A stretch of DNA of 6,116 nucleotides from a virus (taxonomy: Duplodnaviria > Heunggongvirae > Uroviricota > Caudoviricetes). Numbering within the stretch: the stretch's first letter is position 1; every line of letters begins with the position of its first letter. The position numbers and the translations under genes are program-made. Below, piece after piece: positions 2,238 through 3,569 of this stretch. The stretch lies in IMG/VR virus record IMGVR_UViG_2695420403_000002, positions 1 to 6,116 of that record; one strand, 5' to 3'. The notes under the pieces are model-generated. The model was not told the DNA's origin and made no database searches. It was given only the letters and a program-made list of their open reading frames with translations.

Positions 2238-3569
2238 TTACTGAATGAATGACATTTGATTGATATATTTTATCAATAACTCTCTGGGTGTAGTACTCCA
2301 AAAATTTAGGTGGTCATAATCAGTATAAACTTTGGTGAATCTTTTTAGTTCTTCATCACTTTTAGGAGCAAATCGCTCATTAAGAGTAATACTGTCTTTA
2401 ATTATTCCAAAGAATACAATTGATATTTTAGGGATTTTCGAACTCATCTCATAAGAATAAGGTATCTCTTTTATTTTAAGCAGGTCTGCTAAATAAGATA
2501 TAGATTCAGCGGTAATTTCGTGTTTTAGTTTTTCCTTGTCACCAAAGCAATGTATGAAGACAGCTACGACAAAGATCATATTTATAAAACGATCACTACT
2601 GTTGTCTTCATTGTCGTTTAACAGTTGAAAAATGTTAAGATTGCGTGAAAATGTTTGTGTTTCACGTAATGATAAGTTGGTTCGTTGAATTAAATCACGG
2701 ATAAAATAACCTGATAAGCTATTGATTTCATTTAATGATCTTGTTTTTTCTACAAGGTAATTCCAATATATAACAGAGGCTTTACATACGTCGTGACCAT
2801 TTATCAAACATGTATCTGGAAGCGTGATGGTATATTTTATAAACTTGTCAAGATACTTTTGTGAGTTAATACTATAACCATAAATATGATTTATCGATGC
2901 TCTTAATTGTTCTGTGTTTGTAACTAAAATAAAAAAGACATTATTGATGTCAAAAATGTGTTTTATTGTTTCAATGACATTTGTTGAAAAACTCGGCTTA
3001 CATCGATCTAATTCATCAATTATAATTACTATCTTTTGATTTTCTGAAATACTTTCGATGCAAGATTTAAGTGAATTTATGTTTTTCTCTGATTCCATAT
3101 GGTCTTCAAGCAAACTTTCAATAGTCCCATCTATTGCTGCATTGCTTGCTTTCTTCATCGCATCTTGGAATTCTTCGGCAACTTCACTAGCCTCCTGTCG
3201 TAAAAACCAACCTGCACCAGCTTTTAGTACAGTTTTTAAACCAAATCGAATTGCAGGAAGAGACCTCTTAATGAAGTGTTGTTTTTCTTCCTCAGGCAAA
3301 ATGCTGGCAATTGCAGAGGTTATGAGAAGTAATGGAGATTCTGCATGATCCCCTTTAAAGGCATCAATATAAACAACTTTAGATTCGGGTTCTTGCTCAA
3401 TAATGAGATTTTTCAGTTTGATACTAAATTCTGATTTCCCTGTTCCCCATGCGCCATCTATTACCAGTGGTGAAATGTCTGCCTCTGGTTTTAGCAACTT
3501 GATGATATTTTCAGCGATGTTTCTTCGTTGGAACTCGTCACGTTCAGTGAACGATAGTGTATCTAACAT
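2238..3569 (-). CDS. KAP-family P-loop NTPase, candidate phage-exclusion / abortive-infection protein
   Basis: 443 aa. Walker A GAWGTGKS (residues 39-46, nt 3432-3455). Walker B with the KAP signature IIIDELDRC (residues 182-190, nt 3000-3026), followed by FFILVTNTEQL. N-terminal FQRRNIAENIIKLL precedes the P-loop as in KAP NTPases. AGGAG lies 16 nt upstream of the ATG on the minus strand. About 28-30% GC in sampled lines versus about 57% in a sampled line of the DUF968 gene. Confidence 0.8.
   Translation of the reverse strand: MLDTLSFTERDEFQRRNIAENIIKLLKPEADISPLVIDGAWGTGKSEFSIKLKNLIIEQEPESKVVYIDAFKGDHAESPLLLITSAIASILPEEEKQHFIKRSLPAIRFGLKTVLKAGAGWFLRQEASEVAEEFQDAMKKASNAAIDGTIESLLEDHMESEKNINSLKSCIESISENQKIVIIIDELDRCKPSFSTNVIETIKHIFDINNVFFILVTNTEQLRASINHIYGYSINSQKYLDKFIKYTITLPDTCLINGHDVCKASVIYWNYLVEKTRSLNEINSLSGYFIRDLIQRTNLSLRETQTFSRNLNIFQLLNDNEDNSSDRFINMIFVVAVFIHCFGDKEKLKHEITAESISYLADLLKIKEIPYSYEMSSKIPKISIVFFGIIKDSITLNERFAPKSDEELKRFTKVYTDYDHLNFWSTTPRELLIKYINQMSFIQ

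Follow-up and report, generated by a model that had tools for sequence, protein, structure and literature searches.

A single-gene KAP-family NTPase assigned to the candidate defence family PDC-S20 in a predicted cargo slot between Q and the late promoter of a lambdoid-type prophage

Anti-phage activity has been described for several KAP or KAP-like NTPases that act alone, namely EF_KAP and three metagenomic KAPs (PMC13552941), Reve (PMC13586616), and PifA and Tmn (PMC13001434). A further protein of this kind was analyzed here, a 443-amino-acid (aa) KAP-family NTPase (hereafter the KAP protein) encoded by a reverse-strand gene at positions 2238-3569 of a 6,116-nt stretch of tailed-phage DNA (hereafter the window; positions 1 to 6,116 of the IMG/VR virus record IMGVR_UViG_2695420403_000002). 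By full-length profile match, the protein is assigned to PDC-S20, an already catalogued candidate defence family, and its gene is predicted to lie outside the late transcript of a lambdoid-type prophage, between the antiterminator gene Q and the late promoter pR'. We consider it moderately probable, on sequence comparison, that the KAP protein is an anti-phage NTPase expressed in the lysogen and acting as a single gene, and this is the best-supported reading of the gene.

PifA of the F plasmid resembles the KAP protein in being a single protein of a mobile element that has a KAP NTPase domain and no transmembrane helices. It is thought to abort phage infection, and the published model involves membrane depolarization and nucleotide leakage (PMC13001434). 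The PifA profile, however, has 720 positions and the gene belongs to the plasmid pif operon, whereas the KAP protein is prophage cargo of 443 aa. Tmn, another P-loop defence NTPase of the KAP/KAP-like group, carries two transmembrane helices inside its P-loop domain and forms a membrane decamer, neither of which is predicted for the KAP protein; its model is one of increased ATP turnover combined with ion export (PMC13001434). EF_KAP is a single-gene KAP NTPase of a mobile element with shown anti-phage activity, for which a non-abortive block requiring both Walker B and a C-terminal region of unknown function was described (PMC13552941). These requirements parallel the conserved core and variable C-terminal module of the KAP protein, but EF_KAP comes from Firmicutes and has two transmembrane helices and a C-terminal region of 322 aa, whereas the KAP protein has no predicted membrane segment and roughly 125 aa after its Pfam domain. 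Reve, from P4 satellites, is likewise a single-gene KAP P-loop NTPase of a mobile element with shown anti-phage activity (PMC13586616). It probably represents another lineage, because it is left unannotated by PADLOC v2 while the KAP protein is called as PDC-S20; the two are set apart by description and not by sequence. Family members were also sought in P4 satellites, and the Escherichia coli ones examined sit in 186-like prophages and not in P4, whose psu-int hotspot would be the location expected for Reve. The remaining relatives depend on other genes: QatA (about 600 aa) requires QatBCD, RdrA (about 780-900 aa) acts with the RdrB deaminase, and BrxC is part of the six-gene BREX system, whereas the KAP protein has no partner gene.

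An earlier note on this DNA had recognized the KAP family from motifs, and profile searches bore this out. The Pfam model KAP_NTPase (PF07693) matched aa 15-317 over positions 1-292 of 293 (E 1.2e-70; 238.5 bits, curated gathering cutoff 20). Within the PADLOC library, the PDC-S20 model PDLC04956 matched aa 3-442 to positions 4-449 of 450 (E 2.1e-176), three other PDC-S20 models matched with E values of 6e-51 to 2e-28, and all four scored far better than the PADLOC PifA model. PHROG 8614, annotated as "unknown function", matched with an E value of 1.7e-182, and the E. coli orthologues carry the RefSeq label "KAP family NTPase". The note could not tell whether the protein fell into a named defence family; on these matches it is placed in PDC-S20, which PADLOC-DB v2 lists as a single-gene candidate family. 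Besides matching the family profile over its full length, the KAP protein shares with it a single-gene architecture and a size of about 445 aa, and has no distinguishing feature. The single-gene architecture was found in two settings, the KAP gene being the sole gene between Q and pR' in the window and cI, KAP and int being adjacent in E. coli 186-like prophages. The gene is new to neither RefSeq nor PADLOC, and lone KAP defence is known in other lineages (EF_KAP, Reve, PifA).

Several described systems were compared and rejected as identities of the KAP protein. For QatA, the NCBIfam equivalog model NF041923, whose cutoff is 600 bits, scored 36.6 bits, and the neighbouring genes are Q and a holin, with no qatBCD nearby; the PADLOC QatA models gave weak partial matches (E 2e-13). 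Tmn (YobI family) was rejected since the KAP protein lacks a transmembrane segment and no tmn model was among the PADLOC matches. RdrA of RADAR was rejected on the 443-aa length of the protein and on the absence of an RdrB adenosine deaminase neighbour in the contexts examined, and no RdrA or BrxC model was among the PADLOC scan matches. GiPD474, an ATPase for defence that is carried by Gifsy-1 and common among Enterobacteriaceae, is by its published description of the ParA/MinD type, with a Walker A of GGVGKT at aa 29-34. A sequence-profile search of the Protein Data Bank with the KAP protein gave no match.

The KAP open reading frame (ORF) is a real coding sequence, because it is intact in 50 E. 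coli genomes, its protein is indexed in an assembly collection, its ratio of non-synonymous to synonymous substitution rates (dN/dS) is 0.22, and its N-terminus is conserved, with conservation beginning at residue 7 in a 36-sequence family alignment. The reverse-strand ORF of the earlier note, with its ATG start, was recovered unchanged, as were its Walker A motif GAWGTGKS with lysine K45, its Walker B block IIIDELDRC and the N-terminal motif FQRRNIAENIIKLL (aa 13-26). Both Walker motifs fit the KAP patterns (GxxGxGK[ST] for Walker A, hhhhDE[LF]DR for Walker B) and, together with H204, Q221, R302 and R309, are invariant across the family alignment; the catalytic residues are unchanged even though identity within the family falls to 38%. 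Compared with the allele of E. coli WS0115A, dN/dS was 0.22 for the whole gene, 0.08 for aa 1-112, and 0.02-0.10 for the flanking phage genes; 15 of the 27 amino acid differences between the two alleles fall in aa 321-443. The claim of the earlier note that the gene is prophage cargo was borne out by a foreign base composition, with a guanine-plus-cytosine content (GC) of 0.33 and a third-position GC of 0.27 against a GC of 0.51-0.55 in the KilA-N, DUF968 and holin genes; the GC of the Q gene is 41%. Scans of the window for tRNAs and Rfam families returned no matches.

Transmembrane helices near the NTPase domain are typical of many KAP members, although they are not universal. No transmembrane-grade segment was found in the KAP protein, the maximum 19-residue Kyte-Doolittle mean being 1.45. 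An AlphaFold2 model (predicted local distance difference test score, pLDDT, 80.8; predicted template modelling score 0.77) comprised an N-terminal helix, a P-loop core, a helical insert, a lid and an all-helical C-terminal module, and the closest solved folds in a structure comparison included Cdc6/ORC, DnaA and TnsC. Although model confidence in the insert was low (pLDDT < 50 for aa 113-134 and 137-153), its mean conservation of 0.72 compares with 0.71 for the P-loop core. The insert opens with an amphipathic helix (about aa 97-116, hydrophobic moment 0.58) and occupies the position at which membrane-bound KAPs carry their transmembrane helices; it may provide a surface for interaction or for contact with the membrane. 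Conservation is lowest in the C-terminal module, which is proposed as the specificity or sensor region of the protein.

An exhaustive search of 1.84 billion representatives returned 268 at E <= 1e-30 and 6625 at E <= 1e-10. Close representatives were nearly all 430-500 aa in length, alignments usually stopped near query residue 345, and none of the representatives listed was long enough for an extra enzymatic domain. Because of these sizes and alignment ends, the family appears to consist of a compact core with a replaceable C-terminal portion of about 100 aa. An ORF of 160-169 aa without a Pfam domain lies between cI and KAP in Yersinia (L018:6494-6976(+), by our locus numbers) and Serratia (L021:6470-6970(+)). 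It was rejected as an obligatory partner, being absent in E. coli and matching nothing but the C-terminal end of PDC-S48, and that weakly (E 1e-4).

The KAP gene is most likely carried as a self-contained, horizontally acquired cassette consisting of a candidate terminator, the gene and a short leader, with boundaries set by comparison with empty sites in related prophages (Table 1). Its neighbours are those named by the earlier note, Q on one side and a lambda-family holin on the other, and, as that note had also claimed, the cassette holds no partner ORF. The start of Q differs between annotations, with a TTG at 1827 in the ORF call and an ATG equivalent to 1839 (122 aa) in the RefSeq orthologue. 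The hairpin between the convergent stops of Q (2207) and KAP (2238) had a folding free energy of -20.6 kcal/mol (z -5.6) on the plus strand and -18.3 (z -4.6) on the minus strand, where UUUUAUU comes next. Upstream of the gene, a -10-like hexamer stands back-to-back with the pR' block. It is kept at the same place in the E. coli, Yokenella and Citrobacter cassettes, reading TATCGT in the latter two, while the flanking bases have diverged. This element may give the KAP gene its own weak promoter.

The block that begins where the cassette ends reads TTAACGCGGTCCGCA ... GTGGTTACTTCGCCACACAGC, followed by a AAACCCGCC/GGCGGGTTT hairpin with a T-run, and a terminator-like site was called within it. 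In an Stx2 prophage (L026, Q 72% identical), the homologous block comes directly after Q. It also aligns with the prophages L025 and L001, and it was matched in 82 deposited phage records, mostly Stx-converting or lambdoid, adjoining Q. Stx phages have pR' with qut and a terminator directly after Q, and stx lies downstream in the late transcript (PMC6266700). Because of this layout and of the homologous block that follows Q in the Stx2 prophage, block 3624-3722 is identified, by position and homology, as the predicted pR'-tR' module. The -35 and -10 hexamers of pR' were not resolved by a consensus scan or by the alignments, and the block alone is assigned. The perfect palindrome GCGGTCCGC and an invariant GTTAAGAGTGGTTACTTCGCCACACAGC ahead of the terminator hairpin are conserved between E. 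coli and Citrobacter as well as in Stx2 phages; the two may be Q-binding and pause elements. Being inserted between these two elements in reverse orientation, with a candidate terminator of its own, the cassette would be insulated from Q-dependent late transcription, and the KAP gene is predicted to be outside that transcript. The earlier note's analogy with stx and cspB/cspF cargo was therefore mistaken on a major point, the KAP cassette being upstream of pR'-tR'.

To survey the slot between Q and pR', 80 loci that carry related Q genes were taken from different species, and the pR' block was sought in them by allowing at most four mismatches to a 20-mer; 14 loci were positive. Two of these (L082 and L103) had an empty slot, with the pR' block 85 bp past Q, and the slot is also empty in the Stx2 prophage L026, which is outside the 14. 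In the other 12, the block lay 604-2927 bp past Q, the interval had a GC of 0.32-0.43, and one to three reverse-strand ORFs were present, accompanied in L061 by one short plus-strand ORF. A scan of the cargo, which left out L105 and the small L061 ORFs, yielded the genes listed in Table 1. Among them is PD-Lambda-5, an experimentally validated anti-phage system (PMC9519451). In E. coli 1EC213 (L025), the KilA-N, DUF968, Q and holin genes are those of the window, and the slot is occupied by a different gene, at 2906-3652(-) (248 aa), whose product has an HNH endonuclease N-domain like those of CBASS effectors and PDC-M68A. The Q-pR' interval looks like a cargo hotspot that holds defence genes, and the pattern is uniform. 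As in the P2/P4 and cI-int hotspots (Rousset et al. 2022, Vassallo et al. 2022), fixed flanking phage genes enclose variable low-GC defence cargo; the Q-pR' slot differs in belonging to lambdoid phages and in having nearly all of its cargo ORFs on the opposite strand. No description of this slot as a hotspot was found in a limited literature search, which is no proof of novelty.

Slot cargos without an assignment are at L028:3904-4914(-), L098:6896-7843(-) and L099:6900-7946(-). The cargos of L053, L098 and L099 are each followed by a hydrophobic ORF of about 147-186 aa, and that of L105 is likewise paired with a small hydrophobic protein; these four are candidates for undescribed two-gene systems.

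Table 1 Coordinates of features in the window and of cargo genes in the Q-pR' slots of other loci
Sequence	Feature	Position	Strand	Basis or remark
Window	KilA-N protein	18-827	+	Profile search
Window	DUF968/HNH protein	829-1824	+	Profile search
Window	Antiterminator Q (PF06530 type), left border	1839..2207 (1827 alternative)	+	Pfam, E 2.6e-51; RefSeq equivalent in L001
Window	Whole predicted cargo cassette (terminator, KAP gene, short leader/promoter)	~2208..3623	-	Compared with empty sites L026, L082, L103
Window	GC-rich hairpin, candidate bidirectional intrinsic terminator	2211..2235	both	Between convergent stops of Q and KAP
Window	KAP-family P-loop NTPase gene	2238..3569	-	ORF; PF07693; PDC-S20; PHROG 8614; dN/dS 0.22
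Window	Variable all-helical C-terminal module (aa 321-443)	2241..2609	-	Mean conservation 0.35; helices H327-439
Window	Walker B block IIIDELDRC (aa 182-190)	3000..3026	-	D185, E186, L187, D188, R189, C190 invariant, 36-sequence alignment
Window	Helical insert in NTPase domain (aa 93-177)	3039..3293	-	Low pLDDT, high conservation
Window	Walker A GAWGTGKS (aa 39-46, K45)	3432..3455	-	G39, W41, G42, T43, G44, K45 invariant, 36-sequence alignment
Window	-10-like TATTAT, candidate KAP promoter	3605..3610	-	No good -35; ~36 nt before ATG
Window	Conserved block, predicted pR'-tR' (by position)	3624..3722	+	Palindrome GCGGTCCGC; hairpin and T-run 3693-3714
Window	Lambda-family holin, first late gene downstream of predicted pR'	3867..4193	+	PF05106, E 6.6e-25; TIGR01594, E 2.9e-35
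Window	117-aa fusion ORF created by deletion	4197-4550		Junction 4260-4263
L060, Yersinia thracica	PD-Lambda-5_A, plus second gene	7369-8682	-	E 1.5e-164, full length
L091, Yersinia aleksiciae	AAA_15 ATPase, plus partner	6393-9158	-	Resembles NsnB, AriA, PDC-M55A
L030, Edwardsiella	SRA / methyl-directed restriction domain (mREase_II)	6425-6868	-	
L041, Tatumella	PDC-S42	7070-7939	-	
L106, metagenome-assembled genome	PDC-M53A	983-2011	-	
L053, Citrobacter braakii	DUF6731 protein, plus hydrophobic (possibly membrane) partner	6837-7550	-	
L029, Yokenella	KAP			63% identical to window protein

Relatives of the KAP gene recur in prophage slots (Q-pR' and cI-int). In E. coli, the gene was present and intact in 50 of 5426 complete genomes, at 95-96% identity and always on the chromosome, and the exact window protein is indexed in 54 blocks of an assembly collection, recorded as an E. 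coli "KAP family NTPase". In E. coli WS0115A the prophage is intact (L001) and integrated at thrW/proA, with the order int, cI/cro region, RusA, KilA-N, DUF968, Q, KAP (reverse), holin, endolysin, Rz, terminase, HK97-like head and contractile tail. A Citrobacter homologue (66% identical) is convergent with a PF06530-type Q at a distance of 27 bp, with other lysis genes and more cargo downstream. In 186/P2-like prophages of E. coli, Yersinia and Serratia, more distant homologues (42-47% identical) occupy the interval from cI to int and share the strand of these two genes; for phages related to P2, this interval is known as a defence hotspot (PMC9122126). Since nothing, or a 61-aa ORF alone, separates cI, KAP and int in the E. 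coli 186-like prophages, the unit is taken to be a single gene. One prophage with a KAP protein of the Citrobacter type (P0008, L010, from a sequencing-run assembly) encodes, at L010:12240-17258 in its early region, a colicin-domain protein, a GIY-YIG nuclease and a pair formed by SLATT_5 and reverse transcriptase; one prophage can therefore hold several candidate conflict systems.

If the KAP protein is a defence NTPase, the following course would be expected. A weak promoter belonging to the gene itself would drive its synthesis in the lysogen, and a phage-derived trigger would be recognized by the variable C-terminal module, possibly with a contribution from the conserved insert. Binding and hydrolysis of NTP by the ORC/Cdc6-like core would then drive switching, oligomerization or remodelling, the last two being suggested because RdrA of RADAR and BrxC of BREX appear to be its closest solved relatives. 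Phage replication would be stopped, and the lysogen, and hence the prophage, would be protected from other phages. The NTPase itself would probably carry out the output step, because there is neither an effector domain nor a partner gene; it might act on a host or phage target, on the membrane as reported for PifA, or by raised nucleotide turnover as reported for Tmn. This step is the least certain part of the scheme, and any particular output mechanism is held with far less confidence than the defence function as such. A further proposal, which we regard as tentative and rather doubtful, is that a KAP NTPase without membrane segment, effector or partner could be a complete immune system with a mechanism new for the fold (for example, a C-terminally triggered ring ATPase that remodels or sequesters an essential phage or host complex), and that the Q-pR' interval could be an unrecognized defence hotspot shielded from late transcription.

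A number of points weigh against a role in defence. PDC families are candidates by association only, and no paper that names or tests PDC-S20 was found in a literature search. None of the 21 systems of the functional screen of Vassallo et al. is a KAP protein (PMC9519451), and in an E. coli defence-island paper the string "KAP" occurs within an author's name alone. The KAP protein has no recognisable effector domain (nuclease, protease or pore) and no partner gene, which leaves the blocking step unexplained. By consensus, the putative promoter is weak and consists of the -10-like hexamer alone; a promoter consensus scan found 12 weak sites against 7.5 +/- 2.6 expected, no more than chance. With regard to the hotspot, the survey was small (14 loci), its 20-mer criterion favours one Q/pR' type, and four cargo sets (L028, L098, L099 and L105) have no identity, the largest slot ORFs of L028, L098 and L099 being without a Pfam or PADLOC match. 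Finally, the window prophage is defective. Relative to WS0115A, 9,345 bp have been deleted at a junction with a 4-bp overlap, which joins the first ~22 endolysin codons to the 3' end of the tail-terminator gene and removed the endolysin, Rz, terminase, portal and head genes; L007 has the same endolysin/tail-terminator fusion and L005 a different deletion. A gene kept without a viable phage, as here and in a Salmonella remnant, also fits a host benefit unrelated to phages.

Such a benefit is the most serious alternative, and we consider it unlikely: the KAP gene would serve lysogenic conversion or host fitness and have no part in phage defence, its product being, for example, an NTPase for signalling or assembly that helps the bacterium in the animal host. 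Besides its persistence, intact, in a defective prophage, its abundance in Salmonella enterica is consistent with this, since the 90% identity cluster of the protein has 2139 members, mostly from that species, one of them on at least 1000 contigs. The Salmonella copy examined, a homologue that may be STM2238, is 90% identical and lies at 8001-9332 of contig AAYVPS010000009.1 (L112) in a degraded prophage remnant, in the order LRR/NEL effector-like gene, DUF968, Q, KAP, holin, tail-fibre assembly genes and OafA-like acyltransferase. This locus resembles Salmonella pathogenicity island 12, in which the Q homologue STM2239 reportedly favours fitness and transcription of the island (PMC4480994). 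The predicted position of the KAP gene outside the Q-dependent transcript argues against this reading, however, and the slot-mates found in other genomes belong to defence and not to virulence. Members of the family are also present in the cI-int interval of intact 186-like prophages in non-pathogen genera, a single fast-evolving module is a usual mark of immune specificity, and prophage remnants often retain defence genes.

Exclusion of the true PifA type, in which an orthologue of the F protein would sense the T7-like gp1.2 and a capsid protein and abort infection through membrane leakage, is improbable. The earlier note had called the protein PifA-like, and this holds for the NTPase domain, where the PADLOC PifA model matches aa 7-252 at positions 13-255 of 720 (E 9.7e-18). 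The lack of transmembrane helices in both PifA (PMC13001434) and the KAP protein, and the conserved amphipathic helix of the insert, would also suit a PifA-type mechanism. The likeness does not extend to the remainder of PifA, however, in which about 465 positions have no counterpart in the 443-aa protein, and PifA orthology was rejected. Neither pifC nor an F-plasmid context or pif operon is present, all 53 places of the gene in E. coli genomes being chromosomal and none on a plasmid, and the four PDC-S20 models score far better.

No less improbable is a role in the life cycle of the prophage itself, in which the KAP protein might, for example, influence the action of Q, the timing of lysis or induction. 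Convergence with Q at a distance of about 27-32 bp is constant (in the window, other E. coli, Citrobacter at 66% and Yokenella at 63% identity), as such a role might suggest. Against this, L025 has the same Q and holin with an unrelated slot gene, and the slot is empty in L026, L082 and L103. Because the slot can be empty or otherwise filled in related prophages, the KAP gene appears dispensable for the Q-pR' circuit, and the family is also found in 186-like phages, which have no Q. The least credible alternative is an inactive, decaying remnant without current function, for which the defective host prophage and the weak promoter match might speak, but the ORF is intact in every one of the 50 complete E. 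coli genomes that carry it, its dN/dS of 0.22 falls to 0.08 over aa 1-112, and the catalytic residues are invariant down to 38% identity.

The preferred reading thus remains that of a single-gene anti-phage NTPase made in the lysogen. If a defence function were confirmed, PDC-S20 would pass from a candidate family that is widespread in prophages of E. coli, Salmonella, Citrobacter, Yersinia and Serratia to a validated system, and a minimal KAP immune NTPase without membrane anchor or effector would offer a model for phage arrest by an NTPase alone. The slot between Q and the late promoter, with its easily recognized borders, could be used to find further defence systems of lambdoid prophages; if it is a hotspot, it could be mined for new systems, for example among the cargos of L028, L053, L098 and L099. 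For phage therapy and typing, such genes would count among the resistance determinants that prophages encode in E. coli and Salmonella.

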